A stretch of 62,627 nucleotides of DNA, counting the filler, from Candidatus Babelota bacterium (GTDB lineage: Bacteria > JAGOBX01), in assembly GCA_017999075.1 (NCBI GenBank). It is 10 parts of 10 records of this genome, joined end to end, with 100 filler letters (N's around TTAATTAATTAA, not from the genome) between each part and the next. Parts side by side here need not be neighbours in the genome. Positions count along the whole stretch, not along the records: positions 26,555 to 31,014 come from JAGOBX010000346.1; 9 more parts are not named here. One strand, 5' to 3'. Of this stretch, positions 4,459 through 58,231 are shown piece by piece; position 1 is the stretch's first letter; each line of letters opens with the position of its first letter. The translations under genes and the position numbers were made by a program. The notes beneath the pieces were generated by a model, which was not told where the DNA came from, did no database searches, and saw only the letters and a list, made by a program, of their open reading frames with translations.

Positions 4459-5757
4459 TTAATTCCCAAGAAGCATTTCAATTTCTGCAAGCATTTTATT
4501 ATATTCAGTTTTCATCTGCTCAAACATAATATTAAACTCAAGGTATATTTTAAAATTTTCAATTAAATCTTTAAAATCAGCTTTATTGGTTATATAATCA
4601 TTTTTTATAATTTCTATAGCCTGCTGACTTTTGGGAATAATGGAATCCTGGTATAATTTAATTTTTTTCTCTGAAATTGCAAGGTTGGAAACTGCATTTT
4701 TCAATTGTGAAAGCAATTCATTGGAAATATCTAATCTTTCCGCTTCCAATGCTTCTTTCATATTTTTACGTTCGTCAACCATAGCTGAAAGTTTTTTTCT
4801 CCAAACCGGAAGTTTTATTGAAAACATTAACGTCAATGTATTTTCAGTCTGATCTGCAGAAAGCATTTCTCCATCTTCTTCAGCTTTCATTGTTTCATAT
4901 TCAAGCCCTGCCATTAAATCGGGAACATATTCTTTATTTGCAAGCTCAATCTTTGCAGATGCAGATTCAATTTTAAAATAATAGGCTTTTATTTCAGGAT
5001 TAGATTCCAATACCATTTTCTGCATTTCTTCCTCAGAATAATTAATTTTATTTACATCCAATGTTATGGGTAAAATTATTGATTCAGAATCATTCCGGTT
5101 AAGCAGCTTGTTGAATTTATAAACTAATGGTTTCAACATTTCTCCATACACTTCGAAATCATTGCTAAGTTCGTCAATCTGAATCTGTATTTGAATTAAA
5201 TCAGCGTAATTGCTTTTAGCAGTCTTATATTTAGCAGATAAAACAGCTGCTATGCTTTTTAATAATTCTATATTTTCAAAAGTTAATTTCCGCTGTTTGA
5301 TTAAATAATATATGTCAAAATATATGTTTTTAATTTGAAATATCAGTTTTCTTTTTTCTGTTTCCAACATTTGTAAAAATTCATCAGCTTTAAATTCTGT
5401 AATTTTTTTTTCAAGTTTTAGTTTTGAAGTAAGGGGAAATTCCTGTGATAGCAAAAACTTATGTTTGCGCTGGTCAATGTCGGAAATATTGTAATTATAA
5501 GAAAATACAGGATCCATAAGAATACCTGAAGATGTTATCTCTGCACGCGCTGCTTTTAATTCTGAAACAAGCTTAATTATTTTAAAATTATTTTTTAAAG
5601 CAATATTTTTATAATCTTCCAGCAGTTCTCTCTGATTATTAATATCGCTTAACTTGACAAAAATATTGTTCTCGCATTTGCCTGCATCCGGCATTATTAT
5701 AATCATAATTATAATAAAAAATATTAAAAATATAATTTTGTGAAAATATTTTCGCAT
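4459..5757 (-). CDS. TolC-family outer membrane efflux protein (CusC-like)
   Basis: Signal peptide, two OEP-like helical repeats (SQEFP, YVPDL, IKLPVW), directly upstream of cusB-cusA. Confidence 0.85.
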   Translation of the reverse strand: MRKYFHKIIFLIFFIIIMIIIMPDAGKCENNIFVKLSDINNQRELLEDYKNIALKNNFKIIKLVSELKAARAEITSSGILMDPVFSYNYNISDIDQRKHKFLLSQEFPLTSKLKLEKKITEFKADEFLQMLETEKRKLIFQIKNIYFDIYYLIKQRKLTFENIELLKSIAAVLSAKYKTAKSNYADLIQIQIQIDELSNDFEVYGEMLKPLVYKFNKLLNRNDSESIILPITLDVNKINYSEEEMQKMVLESNPEIKAYYFKIESASAKIELANKEYVPDLMAGLEYETMKAEEDGEMLSADQTENTLTLMFSIKLPVWRKKLSAMVDERKNMKEALEAERLDISNELLSQLKNAVSNLAISEKKIKLYQDSIIPKSQQAIEIIKNDYITNKADFKDLIENFKIYLEFNIMFEQMKTEYNKMLAEIEMLLGN

Positions 5758-5758
5758 A

Positions 5759-6109
5759 TCAAATATTTACTCCTATTTTTTTCAGTATAAATATTTGTAA
5801 ATAATATAATGCTGTCATAACAATTAAAGATAAAAATAACGAAAAATAAAAATTAATTTTAAACTTTAAAAATAACGGCAAAACTAAAAAAAAACTCAGA
5901 GAAGGTATTACCAGCCAGAATATGCTGTAAGACAATTTCGATATTTTATCAATGTCTTTGGTTTCAATATACATCCATATTATTGCCAGCAATGATACAA
6001 GAGGTAATGAAGCCAAAGTTCCTCCGATTAAGCTTGAACGTTTTGAAATTTCAGAGATTGTAGCTATCATTAAAGCTGATAATAAAATTTTAAATATTAA
6101 ATAATACAT
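5759..6109 (-). CDS. DUF3147-like 4-TM membrane protein
   Basis: ISEISKRS..GG.LASLPLVSLLAIIW signature; 1 nt from the tolC-like start. Confidence 0.75.
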   Translation of the reverse strand: MYYLIFKILLSALMIATISEISKRSSLIGGTLASLPLVSLLAIIWMYIETKDIDKISKLSYSIFWLVIPSLSFFLVLPLFLKFKINFYFSLFLSLIVMTALYYLQIFILKKIGVNI

Positions 6110-6121
6110 AAATATTAATTC

Positions 6122-6538
6122 CTAATTTTTCAATTTTAGTTTCATTCCGCATTTAACGCATTTGCCAGGTTTATCTGAAATTATTTCCGGATGCATCGGA
6201 CAAGCATAAATAGTTTTTTCTTTTTTTCCGGATTCGATCGGCTTGTATGCTTTTTGATAATATTTATCGAAATCTTTACTTACTGTTTTTAAACAATATT
6301 CGCAGCATACATATACTTTTCTATTATTTTTTTCAATATATAATTTTTTATCAACAGCTCCTCCCATTACAGGACATGTATCATTTATATTCATAACATC
6401 AGTATCTGCAATCAATTCTGTTTTTTTAATATCATTTTTTTTTTTCATAAGATTGTTTTTATCCTCAGAAATTACTTCTGATGTTAAAATAATTGAAAAA
6501 TAAAAGATAAAAATCATGATAAAAAATAAATTTTTCAT
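6122..6538 (-). CDS. Exported small metal-binding protein (YHS/TRASH-like plus heavy-metal-binding domain)
   Basis: Signal peptide, CPVMGG...VYVCCEYC, and YACPMHPEI..KPGKCVKCGMKL. Confidence 0.8.
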   Translation of the reverse strand: MKNLFFIMIFIFYFSIILTSEVISEDKNNLMKKKNDIKKTELIADTDVMNINDTCPVMGGAVDKKLYIEKNNRKVYVCCEYCLKTVSKDFDKYYQKAYKPIESGKKEKTIYACPMHPEIISDKPGKCVKCGMKLKLKN

Positions 6539-21890: not shown

Positions 21891-21990
21891 NNNNNNNNNN
21901 NNNNNNNNNNNNNNNNNNNNNNNNNNNNNNNNNNTTAATTAATTAANNNNNNNNNNNNNNNNNNNNNNNNNNNNNNNNNNNNNNNNNNNN
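21891..21990. other. Artificial contig linker
   Basis: N44-TTAATTAATTAA-N44. Same linker at 26455-26554, 31015-31114, 35556-35655, 40096-40195, 44633-44732, 49137-49236, 53635-53734 and 58132-58231. Confidence 0.99.
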
Positions 21991-26454: not shown

Positions 26455-26556
26455 NNNNNNNNNNNNNNNNNNNNNNNNNNNNNNNNNNNNNNNNNNNNTT
26501 AATTAATTAANNNNNNNNNNNNNNNNNNNNNNNNNNNNNNNNNNNNNNNNNNNNGT

Positions 26557-27423
26557 CCAGGGGCAAGTTATGCTCGTTTTTATTATTCGACATATTCATC
26601 ATTTTATTATTACGGCAACACATCTTATATTACTCCTACAGGCGATTATATTGAGTGTGCTGTGCCATATTCAAACAGTTATATTACAAATAATGGCATT
26701 AACTATTGGTATGCTCAAATATATTATCCCAATAACTCCAGTATAAGATTTCCTGCATCTATGTATTTTCAATTTGATTCATTTTCTAACTATTTTGCAG
26801 CCAATCCTACTCCAGATATAAACCAGTTAATATCACAAAATGTATATTCTGTTGAAAATGGTCAATTTTTTAAAATATATGCCCCTGGAGCGAGCTATGC
26901 TCGTTTTTATTATTCGACATATTCATCATTTTATTATTACGGCAACACATCTTATATTACTCCTACAGGCGATTATATTGAATGTACTGTGCCATATTCA
27001 AATAGCTATATTACAAACAATGGAATTAATTATTGGTATGCTCAAATTTATTTTCCAAATAATACAAATTTTCGATTTCCAATTTCTGGCTATTTTTATT
27101 TTCCGGTTGCTACATCATATACTATTTCCAACCCTTTACCAGCAAACAATTCTACAGTAACGCCTGGAGCCAATGGTCAAAATTTTAAAATTTATGCTCC
27201 CGCAGCAAAATATGCTCGTATATATTATTCAACATATTCATCATTTTATAATTACAATTATACTTCAAATATTTCACCTACAGGTGGTTATATTGAGTGT
27301 ACTATACCATATTCAAACAGTTATATTACGAACAAAGGAATTAATTATTGGTATGTGCAAATTTATTATAATTATGATACTGTTCGTTATCCATTAAGCG
27401 GATATTTAAATTTTACAGTAAAT
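26557..27423 (+). repeat. Intragenic tandem repeats (offsets 327 and 315 bp)
   Basis: Equivalent positions at 26557, 26884 and 27199; 26569-26654 is identical to 26896-26981 (86 bp). Confidence 0.9.
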
Positions 27424-27426
27424 TAA
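26557..27426 (+). CDS. C-terminal part of a Tyr/Ser/Asn-rich protein with at least 3 tandem ~105-aa repeats
   Basis: Frame is open back to the contig start; three copies of APGASYARFYYSTY...YIECTVPYSNSYITNNGINYWY. Confidence 0.8.
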   Translation, partial: PGASYARFYYSTYSSFYYYGNTSYITPTGDYIECAVPYSNSYITNNGINYWYAQIYYPNNSSIRFPASMYFQFDSFSNYFAANPTPDINQLISQNVYSVENGQFFKIYAPGASYARFYYSTYSSFYYYGNTSYITPTGDYIECTVPYSNSYITNNGINYWYAQIYFPNNTNFRFPISGYFYFPVATSYTISNPLPANNSTVTPGANGQNFKIYAPAAKYARIYYSTYSSFYNYNYTSNISPTGGYIECTIPYSNSYITNKGINYWYVQIYYNYDTVRYPLSGYLNFTVN

Positions 27427-27467
27427 ATTTTATAGAAGTTCAAATCTTATTATGGAATTGATAAAAA

Positions 27468-28262
27468 ATGTCTTGTAAAGAAAAAAAATTATGTCCACCA
27501 AATAATATTTTATACAAATACACAACTGCTGAACGGGGATTAGCTATATTAAATTCTGGGAAAATATTTTTTCCAAAAGCATTTCGGTTTAATGAGCCAT
27601 TTGATTGTACGTTGCCTTTTACTGATGAAATTACTCAAGAAGATTTTATTACAGGCGCATTCAGAATAACGAAAAAAGATAAAGAGAAAATTAAAAATTA
27701 TACTGATAAAATCGAGCAATCTTTTACAGATAATTTTGAATTTAACGAAGATATCAAAAAGAACAATAAAAAAATTTATCAAGAATTCATAGAATCAAAT
27801 GAAAATTCAGGAATTTTATCTTTATCTGAAGATCCTATGAATCCGCTGATGTGGGCGCACTACGCTGAATCGCATAAAGGAATATGTATCGGTTTTAAAC
27901 TTGAAGGATTTGAAGATAAAGATAAAATATTAAAAGTCCAATATAGCAATGAAATACCTGATATTAGACTTGGTGAAATATTATATTTTGATGGAAGACT
28001 TAGTACTAAATTATTTGCTACAAAAGCTATTGACTGGGCATACGAAAAAGAATGGCGTATTCTTACAAAAAAAGGCGATAATTATGAAGATATTCCTGGT
28101 AAAATATGTGAAATTATACTTGGATACCGTATAGATGACACTACCAAAAAAAATGTAAGCAAAATCTGTAATGAAAAAAATATTAAGTATTATTTTTGTG
28201 ATAAAGTTGAGGATAAATTTGAGTTTTATAAATCCGTAATAAAAGTTGAAAAAAATGATTAA
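27468..28262 (+). CDS. DUF2971-family protein
   Basis: LYKY, FNEPFD, SLSE..NPLMWAHYA..HKGICIGF, V.Y, K..DWAYEKEWR, IILG. Confidence 0.85.
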   Translation: MSCKEKKLCPPNNILYKYTTAERGLAILNSGKIFFPKAFRFNEPFDCTLPFTDEITQEDFITGAFRITKKDKEKIKNYTDKIEQSFTDNFEFNEDIKKNNKKIYQEFIESNENSGILSLSEDPMNPLMWAHYAESHKGICIGFKLEGFEDKDKILKVQYSNEIPDIRLGEILYFDGRLSTKLFATKAIDWAYEKEWRILTKKGDNYEDIPGKICEIILGYRIDDTTKKNVSKICNEKNIKYYFCDKVEDKFEFYKSVIKVEKND

Positions 28263-28320
28263 AAGCAGTATATTCAACAAAATTTCAGATTAAATATTTA
28301 AAAACAAGGAGTTAATTTTT

Positions 28321-28563
28321 ATGCAAGATGATGAAAACAAATCTATCAAAAAAAGAATAGTAGAGATGATATCTGAATTTTCTATAAAAAATAATATCGC
28401 TGCAACAAAGCTGTATATTCCGAGAAAAGAAGCGAATTATTTAACATTAGAGGTTCAAAATATTCCCCGCACTGAATCTTTTGAAAGTTATATAAAAAGC
28501 AACGGTAATCGATTTTTGGGAATGGCGGTTATATGGGATGCACAACAATTAAAAGTTGAATAG
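28321..28563 (+). CDS. Hypothetical protein (80 aa)
   Basis: AGGAG RBS; no family recognised. Confidence 0.65.
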   Translation: MQDDENKSIKKRIVEMISEFSIKNNIAATKLYIPRKEANYLTLEVQNIPRTESFESYIKSNGNRFLGMAVIWDAQQLKVE

Positions 28564-28612
28564 ACTAATACGATTTAAAAACTGTCACTATTATGTAAAA
28601 CTGAGGTGAATA

Positions 28613-28942
28613 ATGAATTTATCAGAATTATATGAATACAGTAAACTCGATTTTATTCCCCAAAAAATAGGTTATTATTATTTGTACGACAAATATAAAA
28701 ATTTTATTTATGTCGGTTATACCAACGATTTAAATAGAAGAATAAAAGAACATTTTTCTGAATCAGAAGAAAATAAAATTATAAAAAATAAATTTAAATT
28801 TTTCGAATTACATCTAACAAAAACAATTGATGAAGCAGAAAACAAAGAAGGCGAAAAATATGATGAATATTATTTAAAATATGGTAAACCTCCGGAAGCA
28901 AATTTAATTAAACCTAAAAAATCAAATATTGAGGTAAGTTAA
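28613..28942 (+). CDS. Stand-alone GIY-YIG nuclease
   Basis: GYY-x10-YVG, LNRRIKEH, AENKE, PEAN; GAGGTG RBS. Confidence 0.85.
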   Translation: MNLSELYEYSKLDFIPQKIGYYYLYDKYKNFIYVGYTNDLNRRIKEHFSESEENKIIKNKFKFFELHLTKTIDEAENKEGEKYDEYYLKYGKPPEANLIKPKKSNIEVS

Positions 28943-28943
28943 A

Positions 28944-29537
28944 ATGAAAATAATTAAAAATGCAGGAGTTTGTATCATTGACATTGACGGCTATTCTAAG
29001 AAAAAGATGGAAATTCAATATATAATTGTTCAATCTTTAAATCACGCTATTATAAAAGCCAAAAACAGTGAAGAATGTAAAAATTTTAATAAAACAATTT
29101 ATAAATATATTTCTACTGGTGATGGATTTATAATTATAGGCAAAGATATAGGTTTGCTTTTAACAATGATGAAATCATTTATTATTGAACTTAATAATTC
29201 TCCTGAAAAGGTTTATGATAAAAAAAATAACATCAGTATTTCAGACATGTTTCCTTCATTCCATTTATCTTTTCATATTGGAGATGTGTTTAAATTTACT
29301 GATGTAAATAATGAGGAAAATTATTCGGGCGATGGAATAAATTATTGTCAAAGAATAAACTCGGCAACGGGTTCTAATCAGGTTTTAATTTCAGCAACAA
29401 CATATAATAAAATTAAAGATGATAATTTTTTTAAAGATTTAAACTTTGAAGAATTGATTATTAAAATAAAACATAAAGAACGAATGCGTGTTTATAATGT
29501 ATATAATGAAGCAAATACTTTTGGAAGCAAAAAATAA
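28944..29537 (+). CDS. Stand-alone class III nucleotide cyclase with non-canonical specificity residues
   Basis: IIDIDGYS, STGDGF, FHIGDV, NYSGDGINYCQRI, QVLIS. Confidence 0.85.
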   Translation: MKIIKNAGVCIIDIDGYSKKKMEIQYIIVQSLNHAIIKAKNSEECKNFNKTIYKYISTGDGFIIIGKDIGLLLTMMKSFIIELNNSPEKVYDKKNNISISDMFPSFHLSFHIGDVFKFTDVNNEENYSGDGINYCQRINSATGSNQVLISATTYNKIKDDNFFKDLNFEELIIKIKHKERMRVYNVYNEANTFGSKK

Positions 29538-29578
29538 AAGGAAAATATATTTATTAAAAATTAAAAGGTAGTTTTATT

Positions 29579-29845
29579 ATGAACGATTTTGACAAAAACT
29601 CAAATAAAAAAATAAATCCGTTAGGATTAATTATTAGCATAGCGGGCGTTGGTTGTTTTCTATATGAATTTATCTCAAGAAGCAAAATGAGCAGCAGGAT
29701 TTCTGATATGGGTTTTTCTTCATCAACGGCTTCCGAATTAACACGAATGATAATTAATGATTCTGATTTTGGTTTTGTAAATTTCTATTTGGTTGGAATT
29801 ATATTAGTTATTGCTGGTTTGTTTTTAATCCGGTCAAAAAAGTAA
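29579..29845 (+). CDS. Small two-TM membrane protein
   Basis: Hydrophobic segments LGLIISIAGVGCFLY and FYLVGIILVIAGLFLI. Confidence 0.7.
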   Translation: MNDFDKNSNKKINPLGLIISIAGVGCFLYEFISRSKMSSRISDMGFSSSTASELTRMIINDSDFGFVNFYLVGIILVIAGLFLIRSKK

Positions 29846-29864
29846 ACAATCGGGGTGTAATATA

Positions 29865-30517
29865 ATGAAATTGAAATTATTATTGTTTTCAATTTGTCTT
29901 TTAACTGTAAGCGGTTGCGATGGGGCGTTGCCTATTTCATGGACAGTATTATTGACGGGAATAGGGGTAGCAATCAGTCAAACTTTAAAAGAAAATGAAG
30001 CTAATAAAAAAAGAAGGAAGCTGAAAGGCAGGAATATGAAAAAAAAACTGTTGACACAGATGATGTATTGCAATCATTAGAAAAATCTTATAAACTATTT
30101 GAAAAAAATATGTTGTCTCAAATTGAATTTGCAAATAGAAAAGAAGAAATTTTAAAAGTATTTGAACAGAAAACTGTAAATGATAAATGGGAAAAATTTA
30201 TATTGAAGTTTATACCCTCATATAACAGAAAAATAATAAATTTTAAAGAATTCAGATATATGCTTAAATTTACAGACAAAAATAATACAGATATTTACGA
30301 TGATGTTCTTAAAGGATTATTTGAGTTAAGTGATATTTTTAAAGCAGATGTTATAACAAAAGATGAAATAGATATAATAAAAACTAATTTAATAGATAAA
30401 ATCGAGAAAAGAAATATATCTAACGGAGAGGATTTTTTATTACAAATATCAGATTTGAAAGAAAATAATTTTTTAACTGAAAAAGATATTTTTGAGATTA
30501 AGAAAAAAATATGGTAG
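29865..30517 (+). pseudogene. Membrane/lipoprotein with SHOCT-like repeats, split by a frameshift at an A7 run
   Basis: Adding one A at 30006-30012 joins ORF 29865 to the frame of ORF 30068, reading KKKEAERQEYEKKTVDTDDVLQSLEKSYKLFEKNMLSQIEFANRK. Confidence 0.6.
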
Positions 30518-30622
30518 GTTATAAGTGTATATAAACGGAACAGATATTTCAGAAAATATTTATAATTGCAGATTTTAGGAACTGCTCAAGATTATTTTTA
30601 AAATGTAGCGAGGTTTTTTATT

Positions 30623-31014
30623 ATGAAGAAAATTATGTCATTTATTTTTATTGTTTCAGTTGGATTATGTTTATTTAATTGTTCAAAAACTGATGAATCT
30701 GCAAGTATTAAATTCGACGAAAAATTTAACGACACAGATATAAATATAAATAAGACTGTAGAGCAGGCATTTAGCGGTCACTGGCGCGGGATATGTAATT
30801 TGAATATTAATCGTAATTATTTACAAAAGCTTAGAGAATCTTTAAATGATAAAAAAAATGGTTCAAAAGAAACCGGACAGTTAACTAAAGAAGAATTTTT
30901 TTTAACAAATTTTTTTATAGATGATATGGATCAACAACCTGATACTATTACGTATTCAGTTTATATCTTTGAATGGTTTATAAATAATAATTATGGTAAA
31001 TCCAATGAATATAC
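30623..31014 (+). CDS. Lipoprotein, truncated at contig end
   Basis: MKK + hydrophobic stretch + LFNC; GAGG RBS. Confidence 0.65.
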
Positions 31015-31214
31015 NNNNNNNNNNNNNNNNNNNNNNNNNNNNNNNNNNNNNNNNNNNNTTAATTAATTAANNNNNNNNNNNNNNNNNNNNNNNNNNNNNN
31101 NNNNNNNNNNNNNNAAATTATTCCANNNNNNNNNNNNNNNNNNNNNNNNNNNNNNNNNNNNNNNNNNNNNNNNNNNGGTTCGAAAGGATTATTGAAATGT
31201 TTAAAAAGTAAGAA

Positions 31215-35555: not shown

Positions 35556-35655
35556 NNNNNNNNNNNNNNNNNNNNNNNNNNNNNNNNNNNNNNNNNNNNT
35601 TAATTAATTAANNNNNNNNNNNNNNNNNNNNNNNNNNNNNNNNNNNNNNNNNNNN

Positions 35656-40095: not shown

Positions 40096-40300
40096 NNNNN
40101 NNNNNNNNNNNNNNNNNNNNNNNNNNNNNNNNNNNNNNNTTAATTAATTAANNNNNNNNNNNNNNNNNNNNNNNNNNNNNNNNNNNNNNNNNNNNATGAA
40201 ATCCGATTTTTTATTTTTCCAACCACATCCAAAAAATAATATAATTTGTAAANNNNNNNNNNNNNNNNNNNNNNNNNNNNNNNNNNNNNNNNNNNNNNNN

Positions 40301-44432: not shown

Positions 44433-44732
44433 TTATCTGTTCCTTATAAATAATATAAATTGTTTAATGCTCATTTTTATTTAATTTAATATCCTGAATA
44501 AAAAATATGTTAAACCCAAAAAAACACCATGTATTTTTTATTAATATGTCAACTATTTTTACTTGACATTATTTTTTTTGATAATTTTTCTGATACGGCC
44601 CATATATTTTCTGCTCCAAGAGTCAATACAATNNNNNNNNNNNNNNNNNNNNNNNNNNNNNNNNNNNNNNNNNNNNTTAATTAATTAANNNNNNNNNNNN
44701 NNNNNNNNNNNNNNNNNNNNNNNNNNNNNNNN

Positions 44733-45510: not shown

Positions 45511-45897
45511 TCAGGAATAAGCCTTGTTTAAGAGTTCCAGATATTTTATATTCATATTAAATATTTTTTTTACAAGTCCGTCAATTATCTTCAAGGCAAA
45601 ATCAGGGGACATTTTAAATACATCTTTCAAAGTCTCTTTATTAAACACATACAATACTGTAGGTTTAACAGCTCTCACCGAAGCATCTCTGGTTCTACTT
45701 TCAAACAAAGCTGTTTCCCCGAAAAAATCTCCTGCTCCGATTTGAGTCAACGGAATAATTTTTTTTGATTTGGAGGTTTTATATATTTCAAGTTCTCCTT
45801 CTTTAACAATATAAAATTCATTTCCCTGAGTTCCTTCGCTTATAACTATTTCTCCTTCAGAAATTTTTTTTTCAAATTTTAGCAAATTTTCATTCAT
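45511..45897 (-). CDS. Stand-alone cyclic-nucleotide-binding domain protein
   Basis: FYIVKEG, GDFFGETALF..RDASVRA; no HTH. Confidence 0.85.
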   Translation of the reverse strand: MNENLLKFEKKISEGEIVISEGTQGNEFYIVKEGELEIYKTSKSKKIIPLTQIGAGDFFGETALFESRTRDASVRAVKPTVLYVFNKETLKDVFKMSPDFALKIIDGLVKKIFNMNIKYLELLNKAYS

Positions 45898-49136: not shown

Positions 49137-49236
49137 NNNNNNNNNNNNNNNNNNNNNNNNNNNNNNNNNNNNNNNNNNNNTTAATTAATTAANNNNNNNN
49201 NNNNNNNNNNNNNNNNNNNNNNNNNNNNNNNNNNNN

Positions 49237-53634: not shown

Positions 53635-53734
53635 NNNNNNNNNNNNNNNNNNNNNNNNNNNNNNNNNNNNNNNNNNNNTTAATTAATTAANNNNNNNNNN
53701 NNNNNNNNNNNNNNNNNNNNNNNNNNNNNNNNNN

Positions 53735-54422
53735 ATATTATGCTCATTATTATAAAAGGAAATGCGTAATTTTCCAAAAAACCAGTCAATGCTGTTAATA
53801 TATTTATTGTTGTGGAAGTTATTCCTAAAGATTGAAATATTTTTACAAATTTCGGTAGAACAAACATCAGTAAAAAAATTATACCGCCTGTTGCTACTGT
53901 AAATAAAACCGTAGGATATATCAGAATAGTTTTAAGTTTGTTTTTTAAAGTTTCTCTTCTTTCAATATAACTTGAAATGTTGTCTAAAACTTCAGGAAGT
54001 TTTCCACTGGATTCCCCTGATTTTATTGCAGCTACAAAAGTTGAAGAAAAAATATTCGGATAATTTGATAATGCCGAAGAAAATAACTGCCCATTTTCTA
54101 TCTTAAAAATTATCTGTGAAATTACTGTTCTGAATTCTGTATCACTGAATTGTTTATTTATTAACTTCAAACTTTCTAATATCATTGATCCTGAATTCAG
54201 CATTACGGCAAGTTGCCATGTAAACAGCATTAAATTTTTGGGTTTTGTAGTTATTTCAGTAATCTTATTTTTTAAATTAACTGCGCTTAAATCCGTTACC
54301 TTTGATACGTATAATTGATTGGCAAATGCATATTCCGCTATTTTATTCTGATTCTCAAAAAAAAGTTCTTCCTCTTTTTTATGACCGGAATTATCTATAA
54401 AATGAATCCTGTACTTTTTCAT
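53735..54422 (-). CDS. PilC/GspF platform protein, truncated
   Basis: FTWQLAVMLNSG, GESSGKL, YP..L, VLPKF. Confidence 0.88.
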
Positions 54423-54424
54423 TA

Positions 54425-56107
54425 TTATACACCGTAAAGTACATTTAAGGCTTCATCCAAACTTGTTAATCCTGACGTGATTTTCAATAAAGCATCTTGT
54501 TTTAAAGTTTTCATCCCGCTGTTAACAGCTGCCTTTTTTATTTCTTCAACAGAAGCTTTTTTCAAAATAAGTTCTCTGATTTCATCGTTCATTATTAAAA
54601 GTTCAAAAACGCCTATTCTGCCTTTATATCCGGTATATTTACAACTTTTACATCCTCTGCTTGTATAAAATGTCATAGTCGAATAATCTGCAGTCTGATC
54701 CAATTCCCGTATAAATTCCGTAGGAGGAAGAAAAGTTTCTTTACAATCCTTACACAAAACACGCACTAAACGCTGGGCAAGTATTGCCTGTAAAGTAGAT
54801 ACTATTAAATACGGTTCTATTCCCATATCTATTAATCTTATTAAAGAATCAGGAGCGTTATTAGTATGTAACGTGCTTAGTACAAAATGTCCTGTCAGCG
54901 CAGAACGTATAGCTATCTCAGATGTTTCAAAATCACGTATTTCTCCAACCATTATTATATCAGGATCCTGACGAAGAATGGACCTCAAACCATTGGCAAA
55001 AGTTAATCCTACTCTCGGATTTACTTCAATTTGATTTATGTTTTCAAGCTGATACTCTACTGGATCCTCAATTGTAACTATATTTTTTTTCAAAGAATCA
55101 AGCTGAGACAGCGCAGCATACAAACTGGTTGTTTTACCGCTGCCTGTAGGTCCGGTTACTAGTAAAATACCAGTATTTTTTTTTAATATATCTATCAGGT
55201 TTTCTTTTGTGGATTCTTCCAGTCCTAAATTTTCAACATTATTAAGCATCTGCATTTTATCAAATAGTCTCATAACTATCTTTTCGCCGAATATTGCAGG
55301 CGATGACGAAACTCTTATATCAATATCTTTATCATTTATTTTAGTCTTGATTCTTCCATCCTGCGGCGTACGTTTTTCTGAAATATCAAGGCGCGACAAT
55401 ACTTTTATCCTTGAAATTATTGCAGAAGCAAATTGTTTTGGAGGGGACGGGATCTCATGTAAAACTCCATCTATCCTGTATCTTATCCTCAATCTTGTAG
55501 GCTGCGGTTCAATGTGTATGTCTGATGCCCTGTCTATCACAGCCTGTTCTATAATTAAATTCACCAGTTTTACTATTGGAGCTTCTTCTGCAGCTTCAGT
55601 TAAATCAACGTATACATCTTCTTCTTTTTCAAATCCAACCTGATCTTTTAACTGAGTTATCAGTTCACCCATATAATCCTGTATTCCGAAATATTGGGAT
55701 ATAACATTTTTTAATTTACTTCTGGATATTAAAACAGGACAGATATTTAAGTTGGTGGTTTGTTTTAATTCATCTATAAGATATAAATCCGTAGGATCAA
55801 CCATCCCGACAGTCAAATTATTCTGAATCTTGAATATAGGTAAAATATTCTTGTTTTTTATATCTTCTTCAGAGATTATTGAAATTACATTTTTGTCTAT
55901 AAGAGAAAAAGTAAGATTAATGTATGGAACATTTATTTTTTGAGAAATGATTTTAATTATTTGCTCTTCTTTTAATATTCCTTCATCTTCAATAATTTCA
56001 ATTATACTTTTATTGGATTTATTGTATAATTTTAATATATCATCAAATTGTTCTTTGTTGATTTGATTTTCTTCAAAAAGGTAATTTAATACTGTAATTT
56101 CATCCAT
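54425..56107 (-). CDS. PilB/GspE assembly ATPase
   Basis: ASDIHIEP, PQDGR, GPTGSGKTT, LRQDPD, STLHTN, CxxC...CxxC. Confidence 0.93.
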   Translation of the reverse strand: MDEITVLNYLFEENQINKEQFDDILKLYNKSNKSIIEIIEDEGILKEEQIIKIISQKINVPYINLTFSLIDKNVISIISEEDIKNKNILPIFKIQNNLTVGMVDPTDLYLIDELKQTTNLNICPVLISRSKLKNVISQYFGIQDYMGELITQLKDQVGFEKEEDVYVDLTEAAEEAPIVKLVNLIIEQAVIDRASDIHIEPQPTRLRIRYRIDGVLHEIPSPPKQFASAIISRIKVLSRLDISEKRTPQDGRIKTKINDKDIDIRVSSSPAIFGEKIVMRLFDKMQMLNNVENLGLEESTKENLIDILKKNTGILLVTGPTGSGKTTSLYAALSQLDSLKKNIVTIEDPVEYQLENINQIEVNPRVGLTFANGLRSILRQDPDIIMVGEIRDFETSEIAIRSALTGHFVLSTLHTNNAPDSLIRLIDMGIEPYLIVSTLQAILAQRLVRVLCKDCKETFLPPTEFIRELDQTADYSTMTFYTSRGCKSCKYTGYKGRIGVFELLIMNDEIRELILKKASVEEIKKAAVNSGMKTLKQDALLKITSGLTSLDEALNVLYGV

Positions 56108-56203
56108 TTTTTAAACAGATAAACTAATTTTGATTATTTAGTTCGAAAATTATATTATTTTATAATAAATTACAGACTCAGTATATTTCAAACACTTTTT
56201 TTA

Positions 56204-56752
56204 TTATAATAATTCTCTATATATTTCCGGACGCGGACCTGGAATTACCACTGCGTTTACAAGAAGACCTTTTTCACCTATAACAGTTTTAGCAGATTCT
56301 ACTCCTGCTTTCACATCAGCTACAGTTCCGGTAACTGTAAAAAATGCTTTTCCGCCAAGAGCCATAGCTAACCTTATTTCTATAAGTTCAACCTGTGCGG
56401 CTTTTACAGCAGCATCTGCTCCTTCTATCAATGAAGATATTGAAAAACTTTCTACTATACCGAGAGCATCAGGGTTTTCTATTGTATTCAACCCTCTTAT
56501 CGCAGGAAATACAGATTCATGTATATTAGGAATTATTATACTGTCAACAAAAGCAAAATCAGATGTTCTTATTCCGGTTTCAACGCTTGCTTTTACAGCT
56601 CCTACTTCTCCGCAAACCAATGTTATATGTTTTCCTGAACAAATAGTTCTTGCAATCAAAAGTTCCACTTCTGCTGCTTTTAACATTTCATCTACTACAA
56701 GAAACCCTTGTGAAATACTGGATACTTCGACTAATCCGATAGCATTTTTCAT
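56204..56752 (-). CDS. pduT: Tandem BMC shell protein (PduT-like BMC-T)
   Basis: AIGLVE...DEMLKAA...TICSGK (pore Cys), ADAAVKAA, IRLAMALGGK. Confidence 0.85.
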   Translation of the reverse strand: MKNAIGLVEVSSISQGFLVVDEMLKAAEVELLIARTICSGKHITLVCGEVGAVKASVETGIRTSDFAFVDSIIIPNIHESVFPAIRGLNTIENPDALGIVESFSISSLIEGADAAVKAAQVELIEIRLAMALGGKAFFTVTGTVADVKAGVESAKTVIGEKGLLVNAVVIPGPRPEIYRELL

Positions 56753-56770
56753 CTCTAATCACTCTCTCGA

Positions 56771-58108
56771 TTAAGATTTTTTTATTTTAATATAAGCACT
56801 CGATATTTCTGATACTTTACCGTCTATACTTGCATGAACCGATGCTCCCATTTTACCTTCAGGTGTTCTGCCGATAATTTGACCGCATTTAACTGTTTCT
56901 CCTAATTTTACTAAAACAGAACACGGTACTCCTATATGCTGATTTAACATTATTGTAATCTCTTTAGGCTTAAAATCTATTTTTTCAAAATGAGCAGGTT
57001 TGTCGTATTTAGATAATGTCAATCTTTCCAGCAAACGTTTTGTAGGAAGTTTTCTATATTCACGCATCGGATGAGCTTTTAAAACTTTGTCTTTCGGTAT
57101 AACATATCTTATCCCTTCTTTAGCAAGTTCTCGTTTTGAAATTCCGCACGATTCACCCGGATATAACAATTCAGGGCAAGAAAACAATGTGCATAATTTA
57201 CATTCCACGCATAAAAGAGACCAATTTGAAACAGCTTTAAACTGTTTGCCTGTCAATCCCAGTGACCTCATCACCATATGAGGTCTGACATCATGACCTA
57301 ACAAATATCTCGGGCAAAATTCTGTACAATAAGAACACTGATCACACGAACTTTTACCTATCCGTTGAGTTGATTCAGAAGGCAATGTTTTTCTTATTAT
57401 CAGAGGATGATCGGCCGATAACACGATATAACCTGCAGATGTTTTTGTTACTGCTGAATTTTCATCAAACAAAACTTTACCCATCATTGGACCACCGTCT
57501 ATAAACGCTGGTTTTTTAACCGTAACTCCGCCTGCAAAAGGAAGTATATCTTTTATAGCCGTTCCTACTGGAACCTTTATTGTAACAGGATGCTTAACTT
57601 CACCTGTAATTGTCAAATATTTTTCTGTTACAGGATGACCGGAATTCACAGCATAATGAATATTTAAAAATGTTTCGCTGTTTGATACAACACAACCTAC
57701 ATTTAACGGTATTCCTCCTGGAGGAACGATCCTTTTAGTCACTTCATAAACCAATACCACTTCATCTCCTGAAGGGTAAACGTCATCTATTATTTCAACT
57801 TTAATTCCTTTATATTTTTTACATATATCTTTCAGTTTAGGGATAGCTTCTTTATTCTTAGATTTTAACGCTATTATGCCTGTTGGTGCTCCTGTAATTT
57901 CCATTACTATTTTTAAACCTGACACCATTTCTTCAGGAAACAATCTCATAATTTCTTTATCTTTGTACAAAAGAGGTTCGCATTCTGCGCCATTAATTAT
58001 TACTGTATCAACTTTGGCATTAACCTTAACATTTGTAGGAAATCCTGCTCCGCCTGCTCCTATAATGCCGAATTCACGTATTATATTGATTAGTTTGTCT
58101 TTTTCCAT
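56771..58108 (-). CDS. pduS: PduS-like (RnfC-related) flavin/Fe-S protein of a BMC locus
   Basis: GAGGAGFPT, NGAECEP, SLBB GGPMMG, CDQCSYCTEFCP, CVECKLC...CP, C-terminal QHIG sandwich domain. Confidence 0.88.
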   Translation of the reverse strand: MEKDKLINIIREFGIIGAGGAGFPTNVKVNAKVDTVIINGAECEPLLYKDKEIMRLFPEEMVSGLKIVMEITGAPTGIIALKSKNKEAIPKLKDICKKYKGIKVEIIDDVYPSGDEVVLVYEVTKRIVPPGGIPLNVGCVVSNSETFLNIHYAVNSGHPVTEKYLTITGEVKHPVTIKVPVGTAIKDILPFAGGVTVKKPAFIDGGPMMGKVLFDENSAVTKTSAGYIVLSADHPLIIRKTLPSESTQRIGKSSCDQCSYCTEFCPRYLLGHDVRPHMVMRSLGLTGKQFKAVSNWSLLCVECKLCTLFSCPELLYPGESCGISKRELAKEGIRYVIPKDKVLKAHPMREYRKLPTKRLLERLTLSKYDKPAHFEKIDFKPKEITIMLNQHIGVPCSVLVKLGETVKCGQIIGRTPEGKMGASVHASIDGKVSEISSAYIKIKKS

Positions 58109-58231
58109 AATTTATGTTTTAACCTTAATTTNNNNNNNNNNNNNNNNNNNNNNNNNNNNNNNNNNNNNNNNNNNNTTAATTAATTAANNNNNNNNNNNNN
58201 NNNNNNNNNNNNNNNNNNNNNNNNNNNNNNN

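Follow-up and report, generated by a model that had tools for sequence, protein, structure and literature searches.

Nuclease and cyclase genes at the locus

The DNA considered here is a stretch of 62,627 nucleotides (the window) from the Candidatus Babelota bacterium assembly GCA_017999075.1, and its subject is a string of three co-directional genes at positions 28613–29845, which encode a GIY-YIG nuclease, a class III nucleotidyl cyclase and a small protein with two transmembrane segments (2TM). A first-pass annotation had proposed these genes as a candidate Pycsar-like defence or signalling module. In the present analysis, the nuclease and the cyclase are tentatively read as a conflict module within a defence island, and the cyclase is placed in a family that combines with several other domains. 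The window consists of separate contigs of one bin laid end to end, with N44-TTAATTAATTAA-N44 spacers (a six-frame stop) between them; the locus contig occupies 26555–31014 (4,460 bp) and has a spacer on each side. Because the window is made of joined contigs, only genes within 26555–31014 are physical neighbours of the locus.

The first gene (28613–28942, plus strand) encodes a stand-alone protein of 109 aa with a UvrC-type GIY-YIG nuclease domain (Pfam PF01541). Its stop codon, TAA at 28940–28942, is separated by one base from the ATG of the cyclase gene (28944–29537, plus strand), whose product is a divergent, stand-alone class III cyclase of 197 aa recognised from its relatives, a family profile and its predicted fold. 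A putative ribosome-binding site for the cyclase, GAGG at 28930–28933 (plus strand), lies within the GIY-YIG open reading frame (ORF), 10 nt before the cyclase ATG. After a gap of 41 nt comes the 2TM gene (29579–29845, plus strand), an 88-aa ORF with hydropathy segments at residues 14–33 and 61–88. The ORFs, their sizes and both gaps, as read from the sequence, agree with what the first-pass annotation had reported, and so do the ribosome-binding site inside the nuclease gene and the two transmembrane segments. The 1-nt gap, together with the ribosome-binding site inside the upstream ORF, suggests that the GIY-YIG protein and the cyclase may be co-translated.

Upstream of the nuclease gene lies an 80-aa ORF (28321–28563, plus strand), possibly the first gene of the transcription unit, which carries AAGGAG upstream of its ATG and has no match in Pfam, PADLOC, NCBIfam or PHROGs. 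A promoter-like site precedes it at 28246–28274. Such sites are not enriched over shuffled sequence in this AT-rich DNA (29 found against 35.3 expected), and a terminator scan found no terminator separating the genes of the string, so these scans do not delimit the transcription unit. A repeat scan revealed no repeats bounding a cassette.

Two genes upstream of the nuclease, on the same contig, stands a gene of defence type (27468–28262, plus strand), a DUF2971 protein assigned through PADLOC, Pfam and PHROGs to the candidate single-gene antiphage family PDC-S31 (Aristaios-like). It matches the PADLOC model PDC-S31 (PDLC04990) with an E value of 3.9e-56 over residues 14–253 of 264 and model positions 8–253 of 259, Pfam DUF2971 at 6.4e-10 and phrog_1762 at 3.4e-42. 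DUF2971 is the domain of Aristaios, an experimentally tested lactococcal antiphage gene (PMC11381338). This near full-length likeness to Aristaios and PDC-S31 belongs to the neighbour gene, which is separate from the nuclease–cyclase pair. Taken as a whole, the gene string on the locus contig resembles part of a defence island.

The same DNA occurs on a second contig. A 2,748-bp public contig (CAZFLS010000164.1, L023) is 100% identical to window positions 29124–31014, the match stopping at the N run, and it extends the locus contig by 857 bp downstream. Its public label is Candidatus Peribacteria. On the other hand, the window bin encodes resistance-nodulation-division (RND) efflux with an outer-membrane factor, genes for a type II secretion system or type IV pilus (T2SS/T4P) and a bacterial microcompartment (BMC) shell protein, on the contigs at 1–21890 and 53735–58131. 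Given the Peribacteria label of L023 against this gene content, the host and bin assignment of the 4,460-bp contig is doubtful.

The nuclease protein and possible mobile-element origin

The GIY-YIG protein clears the Pfam PF01541 cutoff comfortably (41.2 bits against 22.6; E 2.1e-10). Among solved structures, sequence comparison brings it nearest to the N-terminal UvrC domain (1yd6, E 2.3e-4); the alignment takes in the N-terminal half of the protein and matches its GYYY, IYVG and RR motifs, and the catalytic Glu (about E75–E81) and Asn (N97) were placed by eye. Further matches are partial or weak, including NCBIfam uvrC (2.9e-7, partial), PADLOC UzuA (1.5e-6, over 48 residues), a PADLOC homing endonuclease model (8e-4, partial) and several PHROGs families, among them a GIY-YIG homing endonuclease at 0.0062. 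No close relative was found in the indexed protein collection, where a word-indexed search returned the query only. The protein carries no DNA-binding extension.

One explanation for such a gene is that the contig derives from a phage, plasmid or island and the locus is cargo of this mobile element: a free-standing GIY-YIG endonuclease of the homing or selfish type would travel with a cyclase that serves the element, perhaps by interfering with signalling in the host. In favour of this are the shortness of the contig, its unstable bin assignment and the uniform direction of its genes; the phrog_1762 match of the DUF2971 gene and the weak PHROGs matches of the nuclease fit this explanation as well. 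The GC content of the GIY-YIG gene (21.8%) and of the cyclase gene (24.1%) is below that of most flanking genes (27–33%), and cyclase-like domains are found in phage and giant-virus proteins; a BFVD fold search with the cyclase model returned only generic cyclase domains, from giant viruses and a few phages. However, the cyclase (tblastn) has no match in 50,697 phage or 72,556 plasmid records, the locus contig (blastn) has none in the phage collection, and neither the contig nor its 857-bp extension bears a structural, replication or integration gene. Flanking repeats are absent from the contig, and the GIY-YIG protein, whose best match is the UvrC domain, lacks the DNA-binding extension of homing-type enzymes. 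We consider a mobile-element origin unlikely.

A class III cyclase with a divergent base pocket

The middle gene had been called a sensor-less class III cyclase, an assignment that holds up well. Taken alone, the protein stays under the Pfam PF00211 cutoff (13.6 bits against 21.9; E 0.05), which many of its relatives pass, and a word-indexed homologue search returned only the query. Exhaustive phmmer searching yielded 316 relatives at E ≤ 1e-3, the best of them 30–35% identical with E values down to 2e-15. A family profile built from 20 aligned stand-alone-size relatives matches solved class III cyclases, namely rhodopsin-guanylyl cyclase (RhGC; 5e-14), Ma1120 (about 5e-13), P. aeruginosa CyaB (9e-12) and, far more weakly, the uridylate cyclase 8jsz (1.8e-3). 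An AlphaFold2 model computed on a 114-row alignment, which replaced a single-sequence model of pLDDT 42, reaches a pLDDT of 91.1 and a pTM of 0.87. Foldseek places this model closest to 6sir (E 3.8e-11, TM-score 0.71, probability 1.0), all 50 listed matches are class III cyclases, and a search of the protein atlas likewise points to class III cyclases. Owing to the agreement of relatives, profile, model and fold search, and despite the Pfam miss, we regard 28944–29537 as encoding a genuine class III cyclase domain.

The model opens directly at strand beta-1 (residues 2–14), with the first metal-binding Asp at D13, and has no attached sensor or regulatory domain. Within the 20-row alignment, D13, Q25, G59, D60, G61 and G129 are invariant, while D120, I121, N122, N126, N133, R137 and K176 are at least 90% conserved; D13, D60, N133 and R137 all remain at least 90% conserved across the 114 rows. 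The family signature reads DIVGYS … PTGDG … DINxxxNxAGxGINxAQR … VKHG…YN. Thus both metal-binding Asp residues (D13, D60) and the transition-state Asn/Arg pair (N133, R137) are kept, as had been noticed at first pass.

The residues that specify the base are a K/D pair in adenylyl cyclases and an E/C pair in guanylyl cyclases. Neither purine-specifying pair is present in the window cyclase, where by-eye mapping from the profile alignment to the RhGC chain places I56 and N126 at these positions, aligned to E497 and C566 of RhGC, the residues named in the title of 6aoa. This is the Ile/Asn combination that the first-pass annotation had pointed out. In comparison with canonical adenylyl and guanylyl cyclases (RhGC 6sir/5oyh, Ma1120 and CyaB 3r5g), the window cyclase has the same fold (TM-scores 0.65–0.71, probability 1.0) and the same Asp and Asn/Arg pairs; it differs in having no sensor domain, in its Ile/Asn pocket and in its own DINxxxN and VKHG motifs.

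A pocket of this kind could also belong to a cyclase fold that does not cyclise, acting as a nucleotide-binding regulator or forming a non-cyclic product, so that the module would work without a diffusible messenger. In its favour, the two positions that specify the base depart from the canonical residues, an invariant DIN...N motif peculiar to the family lies in the substrate arm, and no receptor is encoded nearby. Moreover, catalytically inactive domains of the cyclic nucleoside monophosphate (cNMP) cyclase type are described in conflict systems (PMC7159879). Nevertheless, we regard this explanation as quite improbable: all four catalytic residues are kept and are conserved across the 114 aligned sequences, which favours catalysis. 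Judged by these residues, the cyclase is probably catalytically active, with a non-canonical base pocket.

Relation to Pycsar, Pucsar and other immune cyclases

The idea that the locus is Pycsar-like was the central claim of the first-pass annotation. The described hallmark of PycC is an N-terminal helix, with the first metal-binding Asp at D62 or D102 (PMC11224242), and the effectors of Pycsar and of its cGMP branch, Pucsar, are TIR proteins with a cyclic nucleotide-binding domain (CNBD-TIR) or three-transmembrane (3TM) proteins of the pJV1-spdB3 family (bioRxiv 10.64898/2026.08.12.744502). The window locus resembles these systems in that a stand-alone cyclase of class III fold lies by a small membrane protein, encoded 41 nt further on, and in its non-purine-like pocket. 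A circuit of this type would have an infection-triggered cNMP directly activate the 2TM protein, leading to membrane disruption, and/or the nuclease. The PADLOC PycC model also gives marginal matches, reaching E 0.0057 for the window cyclase, below the cutoff and over residues 122–174 only, and hitting 9 of the 20 family members (model PDLC02369, best 8.5e-5).

Most of the evidence speaks against such a circuit. PycC is matched at 1e-5 in none of the cyclases of 12 relatives (PADLOC) and does not appear among the 50 listed Foldseek matches, and the family profile matches ordinary cyclases (5e-14) much better than it does the uridylate cyclase 8jsz (1.8e-3). The N-terminal helix described as the PycC hallmark (PMC11224242) is absent from the cyclase model, whose strand beta-1 starts at residue 2 and whose first metal-binding Asp is D13. 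As for effectors, Pfam and PADLOC detect no CNBD, no pJV1-spdB3 3TM protein and no PADLOC effector match on the locus contig, and the absence of a cNMP-binding domain from both neighbours of the cyclase had already been noted, with the remark that the locus is not canonical Pycsar. Since the 2TM protein has only 88 aa, with its segments at 14–33 and 61–88 and a loop of about 27 residues, there is no room in it for a CNBD, and the transmembrane effectors of Pycsar and Pucsar are 3TM proteins (bioRxiv 10.64898/2026.08.12.744502). The 2TM protein is placed in no family by Pfam, PADLOC, NCBIfam or PHROGs, a phmmer comparison with the 50 loci yields no homologue of it at any related locus, and in the atlas it finds only generic helical hairpins with scores of at most 0.85, which serve as leads only. 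A Pycsar- or Pucsar-type circuit is therefore very improbable. With three defining features missing, namely a match to the PycC clade, the N-terminal helix and a CNBD or 3TM effector, the locus is not a member of Pycsar or Pucsar, and the proposed likeness, resting on a PycC match of 53 residues, is not borne out.

Cyclases have been reported in other immune settings. An 'immune clade 1' of cNMP cyclases, separate from Pycsar and Pucsar, carries fusions to STAND NTPase, TPR, caspase-type, TIR and effector-associated domains (bioRxiv 10.64898/2026.08.12.744502), and conflict systems that join a cNMP cyclase to a nuclease of restriction type are also described (Kaur et al. 2020, PMC7159879). The fusion partners in 'immune clade 1' and in VMAP/ternary systems resemble those of the relatives of the window cyclase (iSTAND, TPR, caspase, TIR, kinase and nuclease). 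The window cyclase differs from both in being stand-alone, and none of those partners lies on its contig.

The cyclase family and its genomic settings

Domain composition was surveyed by a Pfam scan of 149 listed relatives (30 + 119) out of the 316. A CYTH domain stands N-terminal to the cyclase in 30 of the 149. Several other relatives are fused to kinase, iSTAND, TPR or PD40 domains, and single examples combine the cyclase with TIR (P0063, TIR-CYTH-cyclase; P0052, TIR-x-cyclase), HD (P0027, HD-CYTH-cyclase), the pPIWI-associated nuclease domain pP_pnuc_1 (P0115) or caspase and AAA domains (P0148, caspase-cyclase-AAA). Stand-alone relatives of 180–240 aa are also present. The nearest relatives by sequence are CYTH-cyclase fusions of about 400–450 aa (P0002, P0003, P0005–P0012 and others), which are encoded at loci L005, L010, L020, L021, L025, L028 and L038. 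These fusions share the motifs of the window cyclase at 30–35% identity; the window cyclase differs from them in having no CYTH domain and, instead, a separate GIY-YIG gene immediately upstream. A literature search, with few subscription journals in its reach, found no publication that describes GIY-YIG–cyclase pairs or proteins in which CYTH is fused to a class III cyclase. The CYTH-rich cyclase family, sharply delimited and with its own substrate-arm motif, is apparently undescribed.

In a tree of 160 cyclase domains, the window cyclase has an atypical composition and a long branch (1.27), and is sister to a second long-branch stand-alone protein (SH-aLRT 88). Both long branches fall inside a weak group (71) of 19 rows, which comprises 11 CYTH-fused proteins, 6 stand-alone proteins and 2 others. 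This grouping may be called compatible with membership of the CYTH-rich subfamily; it proves nothing. Descent of the window cyclase from a CYTH-fused ancestor was considered and rejected because of the long branch and the lack of a well-supported clade.

Neighbourhoods were compared by scanning a genome collection with a degenerate DNA motif for D[IV]N…N[YF][AS]G.GIN, a pattern shared by 28 of the 50 best relatives. The scan gave 50 loci, the window's own bin not among them. L023 (the window's own DNA), L045 (which overlaps L014) and L040 (without a cyclase ORF) were set aside, leaving 47 independent loci. Most of these come from Verrucomicrobiota and encode proteins of about 800 aa whose cyclase domain is N-terminal, often as tandem arrays. 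CYTH-fused or short forms account for 14 independent loci, and for L023 in addition. Neighbours were scanned within about two genes of the cyclase (60 + 89 proteins, 3 of the 60 being cyclases themselves). The eight proteins of the locus contig were also compared by phmmer with ORFs of at least 50 aa from the 50 loci, with cyclase matches and L023 self-matches as the only result.

Near the closest forms of the cyclase, an HD phosphohydrolase recurs. It is found at L005, L028, L044 and L027 and is the same type of domain that is fused in P0027; the HD neighbour is a PADLOC dGTPase match at L005 (4.9e-70) and L028 (8.4e-11), and an HD-GYP protein at L044 and L027. Other neighbours of these closest forms are HEPN with a nucleotidyltransferase (NTase; L010), a Panacea/DarG-like domain (L028), a CapH-like HTH protein (L047) and a type IV secretion system (T4SS) coupling protein (L025).

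Conflict module or ordinary signalling

Tentatively, and with the odds somewhat below even, we favour the reading of the locus as a defence-island conflict module of nuclease and cyclase. The cyclase would form a head-to-tail homodimer, as all class III cyclases do, and would convert a nucleoside triphosphate (NTP) with some base into the 3',5'-cyclic NMP and pyrophosphate. It would be co-translated with the UvrC-type GIY-YIG protein encoded 1 nt upstream, and the two may act jointly as a module that couples a nuclease to a nucleotide signal or to the consumption of NTPs. In this scheme the nuclease would stand in for the CYTH, TIR, HD or nuclease domains of the fused relatives. The reading draws on the fold and the catalytic residues, the tight gene spacing, the domains fused in relatives and the DUF2971 gene. 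It also draws on defence-type genes next to some relatives (dGTPase at L005 and L028, a Panacea/DarG-like domain at L028, a CapH-like HTH protein at L047 and HEPN with an NTase at L010) and on the precedents of cNMP cyclases in conflict and immune systems (PMC7159879; bioRxiv 10.64898/2026.08.12.744502). The part of the 2TM protein is the weakest link of the scheme, and it may have none. With one orphan example known, on a short contig of uncertain host, the locus is a lead, not a new defence system.

The main competitor is ordinary second-messenger signalling, according to which the cyclase is a minimal housekeeping enzyme with its receptor encoded elsewhere, and the GIY-YIG and membrane genes are chance neighbours in a compact, AT-rich genome. 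Several observations agree with this explanation, weigh against a conflict module, or do both. First, Pfam and PADLOC find no cyclic-nucleotide receptor encoded on the locus contig, and the bin has, on a different contig, a gene for a stand-alone 128-aa cNMP-binding protein (45511–45897, minus strand; PF00027, 2e-23), such as ordinary cNMP signalling requires. Second, no partner is conserved across the 47 loci: neither a GIY-YIG nor a cNMP-binding neighbour occurs in any of them or among the 149 scanned neighbour proteins, and a GIY-YIG fusion is found by Pfam in none of the 149 listed relatives. The pairing is known from one instance, the same DNA being present on two contigs. Third, some relatives keep ordinary company, since stand-alone relatives in Smithella adjoin a REC-PAS-HD-GYP signalling protein and three cyanobacterial loci have ordinary-looking contexts with CHAD, OYE reductase and BRCT proteins. 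The closeness of the family profile to adenylyl and guanylyl cyclases also agrees with ordinary signalling. Against the conflict module stand, in addition, the Pfam shortfall of the cyclase itself, its marginal PycC match, its place outside any well-supported clade of the tree, and the fact that neither the nuclease nor the cyclase has a close relative.

On the other hand, chance neighbourhood accounts poorly for the 1-nt gap and the internal ribosome-binding site, which suggest co-translation, and for the defence-type gene two genes upstream. Ordinary signalling also sits uneasily with the TIR, caspase-AAA, nuclease and iSTAND fusions in relatives and with the orphan character of the protein, whose branch of 1.27 is what fast-evolving conflict genes tend to show. 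Furthermore, the contigs of one bin need not share one organism. We consider ordinary signalling doubtful. A co-fold of the cyclase (with its alignment) and the GIY-YIG protein scored 0.00 against a mark of 0.32 and weighs neither way.

The first-pass annotation had also suggested looking for conserved neighbourhoods of GIY-YIG and cyclase, with or without the 2TM gene; none emerged among the 47 related loci or, as fusions, among the 149 listed relatives, all of which are distant (at most 37% identity among the relatives compared). Because neither protein has a close relative and all relatives are distant, the pairing is unsupported by conservation, rather than refuted. The broader first-pass proposal of a cyclic-nucleotide anti-phage system fares unevenly. 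The defence flavour stands, given the DUF2971/PDC-S31 neighbour and the TIR, HD, nuclease and caspase-AAA fusions among relatives, and what does not stand is a Pycsar-like circuit with conserved partners.

A bolder version of the conflict-module reading, which in our judgement is unlikely, makes the GIY-YIG protein and the cyclase a new immune module of two genes that signals by a cyclic nucleotide. A free-standing UvrC-type nuclease would here have displaced the CYTH, TIR or HD module fused N-terminally in relatives, and the cyclase, with its Ile/Asn pocket and DINxxxN arm, would make a messenger that is neither cAMP nor cGMP. Under this version, the nuclease might sense foreign DNA and switch on the cyclase, or might itself be activated without a classical cNMP-binding domain. 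If nuclease and cyclase do cooperate, theirs would be a defence module based on cyclic nucleotides that lacks the defining feature of Pycsar and Pucsar, a cNMP-binding receptor, and it would add to the known means by which immunity makes use of class III cyclases. The sturdier gain lies at the level of the family, with its CYTH-fused cyclases, its TIR-, HD- and nuclease-fused variants, its HD/dGTPase-type neighbours and its own motif. Should the immune-module reading be true, the CYTH-cyclase family and its HD/dGTPase neighbours would constitute an undescribed branch of nucleotide-based immunity.

Flanking genes and minor observations

The remaining genes of the locus contig lie on either side of the string. 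The first is a 5'-truncated ORF (26557–27426, plus strand) for a Tyr/Asn/Ser-rich protein of no assigned function, with three tandem repeats of about 320 nt (family D1; 3 copies, the later two sharing 86% and 67% identity with the first). These repeats are the sole real repeat of the contig, and the ORF has a weak Pfam match to an RbmA-like FnIII domain (E 0.0077). Downstream of the 2TM gene comes a 71-aa ORF (29865–30080, plus strand) with a lipoprotein-like signal (…VSGC; lipobox by eye) and one hydrophobic segment, followed by a 149-aa ORF (30068–30517, plus strand) with weak SHOCT-like repeats (Pfam SHOCT, E 0.08); neither is assigned to a family by Pfam, PADLOC, NCBIfam or PHROGs. The two ORFs overlap by 13 nt, and the second frame, with poly-A tracts close by, extends without a stop as far back as about 30000; the sequence of 29865–30517 is identical in L023. 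From their reading frames, they may be one membrane-anchored gene with a frameshift. The contig end cuts the last gene, the start of a 335-aa ORF of no family (30623–31014, plus strand), which is completed in L023 (L023:1500–2507) and at full length has no Pfam, PHROGs or PADLOC match.

The cNMP-binding gene at 45511–45897 adjoins a peptidyl-tRNA hydrolase gene and may encode a receptor for ordinary cNMP signalling. Genes for TPR, SpoIID, DUF58 and sigma-factor proteins were considered as context of the locus and rejected, as they are sited on other contigs. No meaning attaches to gene adjacency across a spacer, and an ORF running into one is a truncated gene. The spacers that join the pieces lie at 21891–21990, 26455–26554, 31015–31176, 35556–35655 and 40096–40195, and further on at 44633–44732, 49137–49236, 53635–53734 and 58132–58231; the sizes of the pieces fall along the window, from 21,890, 4,464 and 4,460 through about 4,440 down to 4,396 bases.

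A few observations concern the wider family. In a cyanobacterial metagenome-assembled genome, the minus strand of L032:4958–6235 holds a CYTH ORF (5480–6235) and a cyclase ORF (4958–5458), a split gene or a frameshift; the syntenic loci L020 and L038 have CYTH-cyclase as one fused gene. Phage (Uroviricota) ankyrin-repeat clusters of 522–593 aa match the cyclase model in the atlas, with TM-scores of 0.79–0.80 by query, which suggests, at the level of predicted folds, that phage-encoded cyclase-like domains exist. Verrucomicrobiota carry tandem arrays of the cyclase paralogues of about 800 aa (L048, L014, L022, L030, L003, L024 and L035), with up to 5 members in L048 and 4 in L014; these paralogues are presumably of the cyclase-TPR type recorded for this phylum in the atlas, and an HTTM-domain protein recurs as their neighbour in L003, L022, L024 and L035.

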